DNA of 64,000 bases from Escherichia phage vB_EcoM-ZQ3: the sequence record MW630116.1, one strand, 5' to 3'. The notes below the pieces were generated by a model that worked only from the letters and a program-made list of their open reading frames with translations, was not told the origin of the DNA and did not search any database. Of this stretch, positions 34,342 to 49,441 are shown piece by piece (the first letter of the stretch is position 1; each line of letters opens with the position of its first letter). Made by a program: the position numbers and the translations under genes.

Positions 34342-35076
34342 ATGGAGCTAATCTTTTTAAGCGGCATCAAACGTAGTGGTAAAGACACTACTGCCGATTA
34401 CATCAATTCAAACTTTAAATCCGTAAAATACCAATTGGCATATCCTATTAAAGACGCTCTAGCAATAGCCTGGGACCGTAAACATGCCGAAAACCCTGAT
34501 GTATTCACTGAGTTGAAATATGAATACTTTGAAGGTGTTGGATATGACCGTGAAACACCATTAAATCTCAATAAGTTGGATGTTATTGAATTATTAGAAG
34601 AAGCGCTAATTTATTTACAAAGTCAATATTTACCAATTAATAATGTTAAAGTATTATCATCATTAGAAGGTGGGTATTCATATCTAGATATTAAACCATA
34701 TGAAGCCCTGCGTGAAGCTATAAATAATATCAACGACACATGGTCAATCCGCCGTCTTATGCAAGCCCTCGGTACGGATGTTGTCGTTAATTTATTTGAC
34801 CGTATGTATTGGGTTAAACTTTTTGCATTAAACTATATGGATTATATTGGAAGTGATTTCGATTACTATGTTGTAACCGATACACGCCAAGTCCATGAAA
34901 TGGAAACCGCTAGAGCGATGGGTGCTACAGTTATTCATGTGGTTCGCTCTGGTACGGAATCCACTGATAAACATATTACAGAAGCTGGGTTGCCTATTGA
35001 AGAAGGCGATTTAGTTATTACAAACGACGGCTCTTTAGAAGAGCTTTATTCTAAAATTGAAACAATCTTAAGGTAA
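34342..35076 (+). CDS. 1: deoxynucleoside monophosphate kinase gp1
   Basis: 244 aa; P-loop LSGIKRSGKDT; matches recalled T4 gp1. Confidence 0.92.
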   Translation: MELIFLSGIKRSGKDTTADYINSNFKSVKYQLAYPIKDALAIAWDRKHAENPDVFTELKYEYFEGVGYDRETPLNLNKLDVIELLEEALIYLQSQYLPINNVKVLSSLEGGYSYLDIKPYEALREAINNINDTWSIRRLMQALGTDVVVNLFDRMYWVKLFALNYMDYIGSDFDYYVVTDTRQVHEMETARAMGATVIHVVRSGTESTDKHITEAGLPIEEGDLVITNDGSLEELYSKIETILR

Positions 35077-35080
35077 TAAA

Positions 35081-35766
<686 letters not shown>

Positions 35767-35778
35767 TTTAACAAAACA

Positions 35779-35814
35779 GTTTACATAAGGATGATGGCGT
35801 GTTACTATCATCCT
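35779..35814 (+). promoter_or_regulatory. early promoter cassette with palindrome
   Basis: GTTTAC...TACTAT with AGGATGAT/ATCATCCT inverted repeat flanking the -10. Confidence 0.5.
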
Positions 35815-35842
35815 ATCAAATAAACGACCTCAAGGAAATAAA

Positions 35843-36130
35843 ATGAAAACCTATAAAGAATTTATATCACCTGTTGCTAACGTTTCTACTCTGACCGAAG
35901 CAACCCTTACTTCCGAAGTTATTAAAGCAAATAAAGGACGTGAGGGTAAACCAATGATTAGTCTGGTTGACGGCGAAGAAGTAAAAGGTACTGTTTACTT
36001 AGGGGATGGATGGTCTGCTAAGAAAGATGGCGCTACTATTGTTATCTCTCCGGCTGAAGAGACTGCACTGTTTAAAGCTAAGCATATTTCTGTAGCTCAG
36101 CTTAAAATTGTTGCAAAAACTCTTCTGTAA
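35843..36130 (+). CDS. internal protein (IPI-like) with capsid-targeting N-terminus
   Basis: 95 aa; N-terminus MKTYKEF resembles T4 internal-protein capsid targeting sequence MKTYQEFIAE; position after 57B as T4 ipI. Confidence 0.7.
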   Translation: MKTYKEFISPVANVSTLTEATLTSEVIKANKGREGKPMISLVDGEEVKGTVYLGDGWSAKKDGATIVISPAEETALFKAKHISVAQLKIVAKTLL

Positions 36131-36133
36131 GTA

Positions 36134-36173
36134 GTTTACATGCTGATAGGACTATGTTATAGTAGTCCTATCA
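36134..36173 (+). promoter_or_regulatory. early promoter cassette with palindrome
   Basis: GTTTAC then GATAGGACTAT/ATAGTAGTCCTATC inverted repeat. Confidence 0.5.
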
Positions 36174-36199
36174 AATCAACAACCAAACGGAAAAAACAA

Positions 36200-36463
36200 A
36201 TGAAAACGTATAAAGAATTTATCGCTGAATCTCAATCTTCTACTCTGTCAGAGAACTACGAATCATTCTCTTACAACAACGACCATGCAATGTTCTACGA
36301 CCGAAACATCGGTACTTATGTCCATGTGTGGGGTGTTAAAGATGGTAACGTAGTTGTTAAGAAAAACTCTAAAGAAGGCAATGGTCGTGGCCAGGTAAAA
36401 ATTACCAGCAAGAAAGCTATCCAAGCTTACGTCGATTATGTTAAACGCGAAGCTGGTATTTAA
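36200..36463 (+). CDS. internal protein-like small protein with capsid-targeting N-terminus
   Basis: 87 aa from MKTYKEFIAE-SQSS; gp21-type cleavage context after Glu10. Confidence 0.6.
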   Translation: MKTYKEFIAESQSSTLSENYESFSYNNDHAMFYDRNIGTYVHVWGVKDGNVVVKKNSKEGNGRGQVKITSKKAIQAYVDYVKREAGI

Positions 36464-36465
36464 TA

Positions 36466-36505
36466 GTTTACATGATGATAGGACTATGTTATAGTAGTCC
36501 TATCA
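36466..36505 (+). promoter_or_regulatory. early promoter cassette with palindrome
   Basis: near-identical copy of cassette at 36134. Confidence 0.5.
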
Positions 36506-36525
36506 AAACATGAGAGGATAATAAA

Positions 36526-36711
36526 ATGAAACGCGCTGAACTGATTCGTAATGTTGCTGTAGTAATTGCTTCAATGGCTTTTAGTTTTTCGATGTTTGTA
36601 GGATTCATTTGTGGACTACTGACGACAACCGAAAACTCTATCTCATTGGTAGTGGCATTTCTAATCGGCTTAATCGCCATCGTTATGGATAAAATTGCAA
36701 AAGGTGAGTAA
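36526..36711 (+). CDS. small membrane protein (two predicted TM helices)
   Basis: 61 aa, hydrophobic; GAGAGGA RBS. Confidence 0.5.
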   Translation: MKRAELIRNVAVVIASMAFSFSMFVGFICGLLTTTENSISLVVAFLIGLIAIVMDKIAKGE

Positions 36712-37961: not shown

Positions 37962-38036
37962 GGCCCTGTAGCTCAATGGGAGAGCTGTCAGCTCATAACT
38001 GATAGGTAGCTGGATCGAAACCAGCCAGGGTCACCA
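37962..38036 (+). tRNA. tRNA, anticodon CAT (Met or Ile2/lysidine)
   Basis: hand-folded cloverleaf: acceptor GGCCCTG/CAGGGTC, D stem GCTC/GAGC, anticodon loop CTCATAA, T arm GCTGG-ATCGAAA-CCAGC, encoded CCA. Confidence 0.8.
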
Positions 38037-38042
38037 AACAAA

Positions 38043-38114
38043 TGGTGCATCGTATAAAGGTTATTACGGGGAGCTGTTAACTCCTTTATCTTGGTTCGAG
38101 TCCAAGTGCGCCAG
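38043..38114 (+). tRNA. tRNA-Asn (anticodon GTT)
   Basis: acceptor TGGTGCA/TGCGCCA, anticodon stem GGGAG/CTCCT loop CTGTTAA, T arm CTTGG-TTCGAGT-CCAAG; D stem only 3 bp; no encoded CCA. Confidence 0.65.
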
Positions 38115-38188
38115 TAATTTAAACGAAGTAAATTAAGTGCTCTATCCAAATAATAAATACTCCTATATTTTATAGGAGATAATTGGTA

Positions 38189-38854
38189 ATGAGCATTTGT
38201 AAACATTGTAATATGGAATTTGATATTTCTAATAAACCTAAAGGATGGATGGCTAACCACACTAGATGGTGTAAATCCAACCCTAAATTGGAATTGTATA
38301 AAGAAAGTTCTAAATCAGCCATTGCAGCAATGAATAAAGCACGTATAGCTTCAGGTAATTTAAACCAGTATGTTGTATCTAAAAAGACTGGTGTCCCTGT
38401 AGTAATTTCGGAAGAGACTAGACAAAAATTGTCAGCCGCTTCATTAGGTAGAGAACACTCTGAGGAATCTAGAATAAAAATATCTAATGCTCGGAAAAAA
38501 TGGTTGAATGAAAACCCTGATAAACATCCTTGGAAGAAAAATACAAAATTTAAATCTGTGCCTTGTGAATTTTTGAAATCTAAATTAATAGAAAACGGAA
38601 TTTCATTTATTGAAGAATACCAACCGGTTAAAAACCGAGCGTATTGCACGGATATTGCTTTAATAGATAAAAAGATTATTATTGAAGTTAATGGAAACCA
38701 ACATTACTCCAATCCTAAGAAAAAGATTTTGGCCCCTTATTATAAAGAACGCCATGATATTATAAAATCATTAGGATGGGAAATATATGAACTTCATTAT
38801 GCTGAAGTTTATAAAGAAGATATTGTAAATAATTTAATTGCCTCTATAGTGTAA
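38189..38854 (+). CDS. putative homing endonuclease (Zn-finger / NUMOD3-like / C-terminal Vsr-DUF559-like nuclease domain)
   Basis: 222 aa from MSICKHC; CxxC...H..C N-terminus, NUMOD3-like ETRQKLSAASLGREHSEESRIKISNARKKW, C-terminal IIEVNGNQHY...D...GWEIYEL; located in tRNA cluster like T4 segB. Confidence 0.6.
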   Translation: MSICKHCNMEFDISNKPKGWMANHTRWCKSNPKLELYKESSKSAIAAMNKARIASGNLNQYVVSKKTGVPVVISEETRQKLSAASLGREHSEESRIKISNARKKWLNENPDKHPWKKNTKFKSVPCEFLKSKLIENGISFIEEYQPVKNRAYCTDIALIDKKIIIEVNGNQHYSNPKKKILAPYYKERHDIIKSLGWEIYELHYAEVYKEDIVNNLIASIV

Positions 38855-38915
38855 TGGATAGCATATAATCGTTCTAAGGTTAATGGTGAGAGTTCAAATC
38901 TTTCTAGAGGCACCA
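38840..38915 (+). tRNA. tRNA-Arg (anticodon TCT)
   Basis: acceptor GCCTCTA/TAGAGGC, anticodon stem TAATC/GGTTA loop GTTCTAA, T arm GAGAG-TTCAAAT-CTTTC, encoded CCA; overlaps last 15 nt of upstream ORF. Confidence 0.8.
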
Positions 38916-47774: not shown

Positions 47775-47808
47775 GTAATAAATACCTCCTATAAACGTGG
47801 GAGGTATT

Positions 47809-48297
47809 ATGAATATATTTGAAATGCTTCGTAATGACGAAGGTCTTAGACTGACTTTATACAAAGACACCGAAGGCTTTTGGACGATTGGCATAGGCCA
47901 TTTAGTAACAAAGAACCCGTCTTTAGCCGTAGCTAAAGCTGAACTTGACAGAATGATCGGTCGTAAATGCAACGGTACAATTACCCTTGATGAGGCTGAA
48001 AAGCTATTTAATGAAGACGTTGATAAAGCCGTTCGCGGAATCTTGGGTAATGCTAAACTTAAACCGGTATATGATTCTTTAGATGCAGTTCGTCGATGTG
48101 CATTGGTCAATATGGTCTTCCAAATGGGTGTAGCAGGCGTCGCAGGTTTTACTAATTCTCTTCGTATGCTTCAACAGAAACGTTGGGATGAAGCGGCAGT
48201 AAATCTAGCCCAATCTAAATGGTATCGTCAGACACCTAATCGCGCGAAACGCGTAATCTCAACATTTAAAACAGGAACTTGGAAAGCGTATATATGA
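47809..48297 (+). CDS. e: lysozyme (endolysin)
   Basis: 162 aa from [31 protein letters not shown]; catalytic Glu11/Asp20/Thr26 context conserved as in T4 lysozyme. Confidence 0.95.
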
Positions 48298-48575
48298 AAA
48301 CATATAGTGAATTTTTATCAGAATCTATTCTTAACGAAGCTACTGACACATTTGCAACTAAGCTAGGTGCAGCTTTGGTTGAAGCTGAAAGTCTATTAGC
48401 ACGTATTTCTGAACTTGCTAGTAAGATAGATACTCGCAAATTTGAGCGCACCAGTGATATCGTTAAGCTTGAAGCCTTGTTGCGTATGTGTGATAAACCG
48501 GAAGAAATCGCTAAGAACGGCTCGCTGATGAAACAACGTCTTGAAAAATATATTTCAGGCGCTTCAGAAAAATAG
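48294..48575 (+). CDS. internal protein-like protein with capsid-targeting N-terminus
   Basis: 93 aa from [11 protein letters not shown]; ATGA overlap with e stop. Confidence 0.6.
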
Positions 48576-48576
48576 T

Positions 48577-48615
48577 GTTTACTTCCTCCAAGGGTTTTGA
48601 TACTATACATTCATC
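48577..48615 (+). promoter_or_regulatory. early promoter cassette
   Basis: GTTTAC-N18-TACTAT; spacer CCTCCAAG pairs with downstream CTTGGAGG containing the denV SD. Confidence 0.5.
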
Positions 48616-48633
48616 AACTACTTGGAGGAAATT

Positions 48634-49047
48634 ATGACTCGTATCAATTTAACACTTGTTTCTGAACTGACCGACCAACATCTTATGGCTGAGTATCGTG
48701 AATTACCACGCGTATTTGGTGCAGTCCGTAAACATGTTCAAAACGGTAAACGTGTAAAGGATTTTAAAATCTCCCCGACATTTATCTTAGGCACAGGTCA
48801 TGTAACATTCTTTTACGACAAACTCGAATTTTTACGTTTACGTCAAATCGAGCTAATCGCTGAATGCTTGAAACGTGGTTTCAAAATCAAGGACACGACT
48901 GTCCAAGATATTTCCGACATCCCTGCCGAATTTCGTAATAATTATGTCCCGTCCGAAGCGTCCATTGCGATAAGTCAAGCACGCTTAGACGAAAAAATTG
49001 CTCAACGTCCTACTTGGTACAAATACTATGGTAAATCAATTTACTAA
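48634..49047 (+). CDS. denV: endonuclease V (pyrimidine dimer DNA glycosylase)
   Basis: 137 aa from [34 protein letters not shown]; matches recalled T4 DenV. Confidence 0.92.
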
Positions 49048-49078
49048 GGAAAAAGGTTGCGATGGTAAAGCTTAAACA

Positions 49079-49118
49079 GTTTACGCTTAAGTATTAATAT
49101 GGTATAATTACTCTATCA
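49079..49118 (+). promoter_or_regulatory. early promoter cassette (-10 TATAAT)
   Basis: GTTTAC-N18-TATAAT. Confidence 0.5.
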
Positions 49119-49138
49119 AAACAAACAAGGAAACAAAA

Positions 49139-49441
49139 ATGAAAACATATCAAGAATTTATTACTGAAGCGCGAGTGAGTGCAGGTAAATTAGAAGCCGC
49201 TATAAATAAAAAGGCCCATTCATTTCACGATTTGTCCGATAAAGACCGTAAGAAACTTGTAAGCCTTTATATTGACAAAGAGCGTATTCTCGCTCTTCCT
49301 GGCGCTAATGAAGGTAAACAGGCCAAGCCTTTGAATGCTGTTGAAAAGAAAATTGATAACTTTGCTTCTAAATTCGGTATGTCTATGGATGACCTTCAGC
49401 AAGCGGCTATCGAAGCAGCTAAAGTAATTAAAGGTAAATAA
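49139..49441 (+). CDS. internal protein (IPII/IPIII-like)
   Basis: 100 aa from MKTYQEFITE-ARVSAGKLEAA; canonical capsid-targeting sequence. Confidence 0.7.
   Translation: MKTYQEFITEARVSAGKLEAAINKKAHSFHDLSDKDRKKLVSLYIDKERILALPGANEGKQAKPLNAVEKKIDNFASKFGMSMDDLQQAAIEAAKVIKGK

Follow-up and report, generated by a model that had tools for sequence, protein, structure and literature searches.

An IPI orthologue and a candidate injected internal protein at the ipI locus of Escherichia phage vB_EcoM-ZQ3

Escherichia phage vB_EcoM-ZQ3 (sequence record MW630116.1) was analysed over a stretch of 64,000 nucleotides, referred to here as the window. The window belongs to a Mosigvirus (RB69-like) genome; its best DNA matches are Mosigvirus phages at 97-99.5% identity, and the relatives fetched are classed as Mosigvirus. 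Judged by sequence, positions 35843-36463 are the ipI locus of an RB69-like T4-type phage, 3' of gene 57B, and hold two small genes, ORF1 and ORF2. ORF1 is identified as the orthologue of internal protein I (IPI). ORF2 appears to be a further, so far unnamed member of the T-even internal proteins (Ips), at a type of locus that is already known. We consider it probable that this account holds as a whole, namely an ipI locus that supplies IPI and a second injected protein. The main interest of ORF2 is evolutionary. The chances seem evenly balanced that it represents the natural capture of a capsid-targeting sequence (CTS), in which a small basic early protein, leaderless in Dhakavirus, Marfavirus, Mosugukvirus, and Aeromonas phages near topoisomerase genes, acquired an 18-aa IPI/IPIII-type propeptide in Mosigvirus and moved to the ipI hotspot in a clean cassette bounded by early-promoter stem-loop elements (PeSLs).

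Two genes with a common leader

The features of the two genes are as follows.

35843-36130, plus strand: ipI (ORF1), internal protein I precursor, 95 aa; matches Pfam IPI_T4, 2JUB_A, and phrog_4363
35843-35899: ORF1 propeptide, residues 1-19, ending STLTE
35900-36127: mature IPI* of ORF1, 76 aa
36200-36463, plus strand: ORF2, unnamed internal-protein candidate, 87 aa
36200-36253: ORF2 leader, 18 residues, MKTYKEFIAE/SQSSTLSE/ (slashes follow the putative cleavage sites)
36254-36460: predicted mature domain of ORF2, 69 aa, 7.9 kDa, isoelectric point (pI) 9.4

An earlier note on this DNA had described a tandem pair of internal-protein-like genes next to 57B, with common capsid-targeting N-termini and unrelated bodies, and this description was confirmed. 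Both ORFs lie on the plus strand, and they begin with MKTYKEFISPVANVSTLTE (ORF1) and MKTYKEFIAESQSSTLSE (ORF2). BLASTP of ORF1 against ORF2 detected similarity only between residues 1-19 and 1-18 (12/19 identical), that is, between MKTYKEFISPVANVSTLTE and MKTYKEFIAE-SQSSTLSE. The similarity stops precisely at the L-x-E site, nothing was found past the leader, and the IPI* structure (2JUB) was absent among the structural matches listed for the ORF2 model. The leader is thus all that ORF2 shares with IPI. At the DNA level, 27/30 and 13/15 nt of the leaders are shared. The common N-terminus is not a product of chance. A T4-type capsid-targeting propeptide with the L/I-x-E motifs of the gp21 protease is present in both sequences.

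ORF1 matched Pfam PF11634 (IPI_T4) with an E value of 3.2e-50 and 168.4 bits (cut-off 25), residues 20-95 covering positions 1-76 of the 76-position profile. The same residues were identical to the nuclear magnetic resonance structure of T4 IPI* (2JUB_A) at 71 of 76 positions (93%, E 8e-42), and the homologues in relatives are annotated ipI or Ip1. The propeptide ends in L-T-E19 just before the mature start (MKTYKEFISPVANVSTLTE followed by ATLTSEV), which is the sole [LI]xE in ORF1; the counterpart in T4 IPI is STITE followed by ATLTSEV. Like T4 IPI (PF11634, 2JUB), ORF1 has 95 aa, a 19-aa propeptide ending in x-T-E, a place after 57B, and the same promoter and stem-loop arrangement upstream. 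It differs from T4 IPI in five mature substitutions, one more than the alleles of WFK and Shf125875, and in its leader (MKTYKEFISP versus MKTFKEFTST). ORF1 thereby corresponds to a known protein and, being IPI, adds nothing new. T4 IPI* is an injected inhibitor of CT596-type GmrSD (PMC3012670, PMC12373910), and RB69 IPI, which differs from T4 IPI in four residues, has been reported to prevent GmrSD restriction of RB69 (PMC6024577). The "unknown specificity" given to both proteins in the earlier note is therefore wrong for ORF1, since an IPI orthologue with 71/76 identity to T4 IPI* has a reported target, CT596-type GmrSD. The implied cleavage at position 10 fails for ORF1, which has P10 and a site after E19 as in T4 IPI. 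For ORF2, the idea of an injected anti-defence effector is plausible as a hypothesis.

The leader of ORF2 contains Y4, F7, I8, and E10, which are all the CTS determinants mapped in IPIII, where mutagenesis showed that positions 4 and 7 govern targeting and positions 8 and 10 govern processing (PMC9026906). The first ten CTS residues alone suffice to package foreign proteins; gp21 cleaves after L/I-x-E, and the propeptides of natural IPs have 10-19 aa (PMC9026906). Two gp21-type motifs, IAE10 and LSE18, were found in ORF2 and none in the other 69 residues, and LSE18 aligns with the IPI cleavage site. The leader is a hybrid, with an IPIII-type part (MKTYKEFIAE) and an IPI-type part (STLSE). The predicted mature protein resembles IPI* in size and charge (7.9 kDa and pI 9.4 versus 8.0 kDa and pI 9.0).

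ORF2 was found in 28 phage records at 95-100% identity, with the annotation "hypothetical" in every one; its carriers include NicPhage, JK45, ST0, and phage 55. The four critical residues of the leader and the two in-frame cleavage motifs are kept across all 28. ORF2 is under purifying selection: dN/dS was 0.07 against AV113 and 0.16 against the Dhakavirus homologue, phage 55 differs by 6 synonymous and 0 nonsynonymous changes, and no nonsynonymous change was seen against phage 308Ecol101PP either. On these dN/dS values, a pseudogene or a non-coding reading was rejected. A 107-aa version of ORF2 (ATG at 36140), taken from a mechanical ORF list, was rejected; its start lies inside the promoter hairpin and has no ribosome-binding site, and it is used by no annotated relative, all of which begin at the equivalent of 36200.

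The ORF2 body and its leaderless homologues

The body of ORF2 belongs to a small family without the leader. ORF2 matched phrog_13302 (2.2e-37) through residues 16-87 only, corresponding to positions 1-69 of the 71-position profile. This PHROG consists of small early proteins, and the homologues are 67-73 aa long and leaderless. Pfam and NCBIfam gave no matches with ORF2, and the PDB sequences gave nothing significant (best E 0.3, an ankyrin design). Searches of 5.8 billion clusters and of 1.84 billion representatives, together with a profile search, returned just four clusters and no larger family.

The homologue in Dhakavirus (IME341, IME08, AnYang) has 73 aa, 63-67% identity, and the N-terminus MKTLNINSFFYN. 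Its gene sits between the topoisomerase gene 52 and motA, and there is no room for a leader because a PeSL-like promoter stands immediately upstream. Homologues of 71 aa occur in Aeromonas Tulanevirus and Biquartavirus, between gp60/39 and rIIA. Klebsiella Marfavirus pzk-kv8 has a 67-aa homologue, and a metagenomic T4-like contig has one of 72 aa, 3' of genes for a DnaB-like (gp41-type) helicase and a dexA-like exonuclease. Pectobacterium phage PM2 carries a degraded copy of the ORF2 body between gp52 and motA (L015, 1462-1653). All of these homologues are basic, with pI values of 9.3-9.7. The PM2 copy looks frameshifted or truncated, with 47 aa annotated and, upstream in the same frame, a stretch that lacks a start codon; this copy is probably decaying.

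The occurrence of leaderless homologues in the early regions of other phage genera makes ORF2 look like a CTS capture that happened in nature. The Mosigvirus member alone has the leader and its closest relative is without it; the parsimonious history is one in which the leader was gained once. Fusion of the leader to a domain of a leaderless early-protein family would be expected to redirect a formerly cytoplasmic protein into the capsid. The engineered CTS fusions of Mullaney and Black (1996/1998; CTS-GFP and CTS-nuclease) set a precedent, in that a short N-terminal CTS causes the T4 head to take up a cytoplasmic protein, which is then processed there (PMC9026906). ORF2, if packaged as we infer, would be the natural, evolutionarily fixed counterpart. 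The leaderless homologues would then provide a rare natural example of the T4 capsid-targeting tag recruiting an existing cytoplasmic protein into the virion, and they allow the direct question whether delivery timing matters for the effector. If the capture is real, an effector once expressed after infection now enters together with the DNA, and new injected anti-defence proteins can be recruited from among early genes. Pairs with and without the leader may then reveal which host defences have to be put out of action before any phage transcript is made, and the target might belong to a class of defence so far not connected with internal proteins.

The structure of ORF2 was modelled with AlphaFold2. 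The full-length model built from three sequences was unusable (pLDDT 45.8). The mature domain (residues 19-87), modelled from five family sequences, reached a pLDDT of 91.2 and a pTM of 0.79, with five strands followed by a C-terminal helix, and BFVD models made independently for members of the family agreed with it (TM 0.93-0.98). Structure prediction of the mature domain, which the earlier note had proposed, thus gave a confident compact fold, but no solved fold matched it convincingly. No sequence or fold similarity to IPI was found for the mature part, with 2JUB absent from the structural matches listed. AcrIF13 (PDB 7FI4) has a generic sheet-plus-helix likeness to the model; its sequence identity is 7% and Foldseek did not recover it, so that membership is not claimed and AcrIF13 is kept as a lead only.

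Cassettes, expression, and proposed function

Three PeSLs were found at the locus.

35777-35823, plus strand: PeSL 1, early-type promoter TTTACA-17-TACTAT with the -10 box within the stem-loop, upstream of ipI (folding free energy, dG, -13.2; z -3.2)
36132-36178, plus strand: PeSL 2, TTTACA-17-TATAGT with a 12-bp stem-loop, 5' edge of the ORF2 cassette (dG -17.7; z -5.2)
36464-36510, plus strand: PeSL 3, a 96%-identical direct repeat of PeSL 2, 3' edge of the cassette and promoter of trna.4

Hence ipI, ORF2, and trna.4 are each preceded by a 47-nt element consisting of TTTACA, a 17-nt spacer, and TATAGT or TACTAT, with the -10 box in a hairpin. Over the three hairpins, dG ranged from -13 to -18 kcal/mol and z from -3.2 to -5.2, and the promoter scan gave 9-10/12 matches with a TG extension. 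PeSL 2 and PeSL 3 lie 332 bp apart and bound the ORF2 cassette. Mosigvirus WFK has one PeSL copy and an empty ORF2 slot, and the indel falls exactly between the repeat copies. In T4-type phages, PeSLs have been credited with mediating the shuffling of modules, and their published T4/PST consensus is TTTACW-N17-TAYWAT (PMC4122927, PMC2839356). The elements of the window resemble the published cassettes (Arbiol 2010, PMC2839356; Comeau 2014, PMC4122927) in having the -10 box in a stable hairpin and in flanking variable small ORFs. They differ in that the cassettes carry predicted virion-targeted proteins rather than anonymous early ORFs, and in that two of the three -10 boxes (TATAGT) are one base off the published consensus. 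As a side observation, the PeSL hairpins have no T-run, and the scan called no terminators there.

The interval between 57B and trna.4 contains one to three CTS genes, in combinations that differ between phages.

T4 and WFK: ipI alone
The window and 27 other records: ipI and ORF2
Shf125875: ipI and Ip7
AV113: ORF2 directly after 57B and a 90-aa Ip; ipI absent
KAW1E185: ipI and a 77-aa Ip
310Ecol104PP: three Ips; ipI absent

The place of ORF2 between ipI and trna.4 is one of two Ip hotspots (57B-trna.4 and e-denV-ipII/III), and its slot is filled in relatives by Ip7 or other Ips. "Genomic polymorphism" of CTS-bearing Ip genes at this locus goes back to Repoila 1994, as cited by PMC3012670 and PMC12373910. 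ORF2 resembles the polymorphic genes Ip2-Ip13 (Repoila et al. 1994; Silas et al. 2025) in several ways: its leader is conserved, its body is small, basic, and unrelated, it lies in the 57B-trna.4 hotspot, its presence or absence differs among close relatives, and Ip7 is the alternative in its slot. Unlike the other Ips, it has never been named an Ip, and it has leaderless homologues, which we did not find reported for other Ips, although no survey was made. No database source gives ORF2 a name from Ip4 to Ip13, with the limit that the historical Ip sequences were not directly compared, and neither the ORF2 sequence nor its CTS strings were found in the Silas 2025 supplements. In AV113 (L006, 677-1276), the ORF2 allele stands behind an ipI-type PeSL; this phage is naturally without IPI and is a useful comparator.

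We propose that the ipI locus works as two independent promoter-plus-gene cassettes. IPI would be made from its early-type promoter and accumulate late, and its propeptide would carry it into the scaffolding core of the prohead. The gp21 prohead protease would cut after L-T-E19, and the 76-aa IPI* would be ejected with the DNA and block CT596-type GmrSD. On the T4 analogy, transcription of ORF2 would start at its own early promoter; the protein would enter the scaffolding core via its CTS and be trimmed by gp21 at E10 and/or E18, yielding a basic product of about 8 kDa that reaches the host already made, together with the DNA. It is likely that ORF2 is packaged, processed, and ejected. The mature protein may then neutralise a first-response host nuclease, the leading candidate being a GmrSD-family type IV variant directed against Mosigvirus DNA with its arabinosylated cytosine. 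Recombination at the PeSL repeats on either side would let the cassette itself pass from one genome or slot to another.

The suggested target rests on analogy. Ip1, Ip2, and Ip3 each inhibit a different GmrSD-family type IV enzyme (PMC12373910), and other genes in both Ip loci have been proposed to target variants of the same kind of system (Silas 2025, PMC12373910). The idea of injected anti-defence proteins for the CTS genes of this locus is accordingly not new (Repoila 1994; Silas 2025). Mosigvirus DNA has arabinosylated cytosines, as opposed to the glucosylated DNA of T4, and is cut by GmrSD-family enzymes (PMC6024577; PMC13390438). Since Ip1-3 inhibit GmrSDs and Mosigvirus DNA is cut by enzymes of this family, the best guess is that ORF2 inhibits such an enzyme, and a type IV restriction enzyme as its target is put forward tentatively, at somewhat less than an even chance. 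Among the phage types with leaderless homologues, JS98-type and Aeromonas phage 25-type phages carry gene 42 alleles (PMC2993671, Table 4) and hence modified cytosine, which is weakly consistent with a role of the ORF2 family on modified DNA.

Several points weigh against the proposal. NicPhage, which has an identical ORF2 and IPI, is still restricted by the GmrSD-family enzyme BrxU (PMC13390438), so BrxU is not the target of ORF2, at least at the expression level tested. The leaderless homologues evidently work from intracellular expression, and the domain needs no injection. A literature search gave no mention of ORF2 and no virion proteomics or genetics for it in any phage. Finally, no late promoter (TATAAATA) was found on the plus strand between 34726 and 39619. 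None precedes ipI or ORF2, where the sole near-matches (TATAAAGA) are the Y-K-E codons of the CTS, and any late supply of ORF2 must therefore depend on read-through or on early mRNA or protein that is stable. T4 ipI likewise has no late promoter. T4 ipI, ipII, and ipIII are classed as "early RNA, late protein" (PMC9697503, supplement), and on that account an early promoter is compatible with packaging of ORF2.

The sole perfect late-promoter box (TATAAATA) on the plus strand near the locus is at 34719-34726, inside gene 1 and 355 bp upstream of 57A. Read-through transcripts from it could run across 57A, 57B, ipI, and ORF2.

Among the alternatives, the one that survives best accepts that ORF2 is packaged and injected and assigns it a target that is not of the GmrSD type, either another first-response defence or a host-takeover target. 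Examples would be a different modification-dependent nuclease or glycosylase, or a host target that the leaderless homologues hit from early expression. The position of these homologues among early host-takeover genes beside topoisomerase, motA, and rIIA speaks for it, as do the BrxU sensitivity of NicPhage despite its ORF2 and a fold that is unlike IPI* and matches no known inhibitor convincingly. Nevertheless, all three functionally solved T4 Ips inhibit GmrSD though they are unrelated in sequence (PMC12373910), the slot of ORF2 is in the same hotspot as IPI, and its family occurs in phage types with modified cytosine. We consider this alternative unlikely; because the leaderless homologues act intracellularly, it is still a serious rival.

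Less probable again, and in our judgement improbable, is that ORF2 is an ordinary early cytoplasmic protein that is not packaged, its CTS-like N-terminus having arisen incidentally when neighbouring Ip cassettes recombined at the promoter, ribosome-binding site, and start region that they share. This would agree with the early-type promoter as the only one upstream, with homologues that function without a leader, and with the finding that IPIII produced inside the cell is active even when its CTS is missing (PMC9391042). Against it, the leader keeps four critical residues and two cleavage motifs across 28 records and is free of nonsynonymous change against 308Ecol101PP and 55; ten CTS residues package even foreign proteins (PMC9026906), and the T4 Ip genes are also early RNA. 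A purely structural or DNA-associated role in the head (charge neutralisation or head assembly, as discussed for IPIII) is very improbable. In its favour are the small size and basic charge of ORF2 (pI 9.4), the low-salt DNA binding of T4 IPs, and the slower head assembly seen in IPIII mutants (PMC9026906). Against it, the gene is dispensable, as sister Mosigviruses lack it or carry Ip7; its presence/absence polymorphism is typical of arms-race genes; and packaging would not be expected of its leaderless homologues.

With injection and an anti-restriction role retained as the preferred reading, ORF2 is modestly important as a concrete candidate for a further injected anti-restriction protein in phages with arabinosylated DNA. 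Mosigvirus phages are under study against antibiotic-resistant E. coli (10.64898/2026.09.14.751387). WFK (empty slot), Shf125875 (Ip7), and AV113 (ORF2 without IPI) offer natural isogenic comparators.

Gene order and other features of the window

The gene order of the region is gp2, gp3, gp1, 57A, 57B, ORF1, ORF2, trna.4, trna.3, trna.2, and tRNA genes, which is the order of the T4 ipI region. The locus is bordered by the following genes.

35311-35766, plus strand: gene 57B, Acb1, anti-CBASS phosphodiesterase, 5' border of the Ip locus (Pfam PF23474, E=1.3e-58)
36526-36711, plus strand: trna.4-like small membrane protein, conserved 3' border of the Ip locus (phrog_1692, 1.4e-32)

The position of 57B is identical in all relatives compared, and trna.4 follows the Ip genes also in T4, WFK, Shf125875, AV113, KAW1E185, and 310Ecol104PP. 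The neighbourhood is a known anti-defence one. Because the adjoining 57B is Acb1 by its Pfam match, ORF1 and ORF2 continue an anti-defence stretch, and Acb1, IPI, and ORF2 form one contiguous block.

In a six-frame scan of the whole 64 kb, only four ORFs of 40 aa or more began with the motif M-[KR]-x-[YF]-x-[ED]-[FLIY]: ORF1, ORF2, 48294-48575, and 49139-49441. The latter two adjoin the lysozyme gene e and a denV-like gene, and the four positions match the two Ip loci of T-even phages (PMC12373910). The second Ip locus of the window (47797-49441) consists of the following genes.

47797-48297: lysozyme e
48294-48575: 93-aa CTS protein (phrog_3499)
48622-49047: denV-like gene
49139-49441: IpII-like 100-aa CTS protein, MKTYQEFITE (phrog_7857)

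With a pI of 5.5, the 93-aa protein is unusually acidic; it contains four L/I-x-E motifs.

The N-terminus of ORF1 (35843-35995, residues 1-51) gave a weak, sub-threshold Pfam match to DUF7412 (E 0.012), which may be another CTS-bearing family. For PHROGs 3966, 15565, 2667, 8765, and 3155, the match is likewise confined to the leader of ORF1 or ORF2, a sign that the CTS may be common to further families.

Within 37962-38915, an ORF of 223 aa (38183-38854) with weak homing-endonuclease PHROG matches is flanked by tRNA-Asn (38043-38114) and by tRNA-Arg (38840-38915), whose start it overlaps. tRNA-Met adjoins tRNA-Arg in 308Ecol101PP and Shf125875, which have neither the 223-aa ORF nor an annotated tRNA-Asn. 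The region looks like a mobile insertion in the tRNA cluster.

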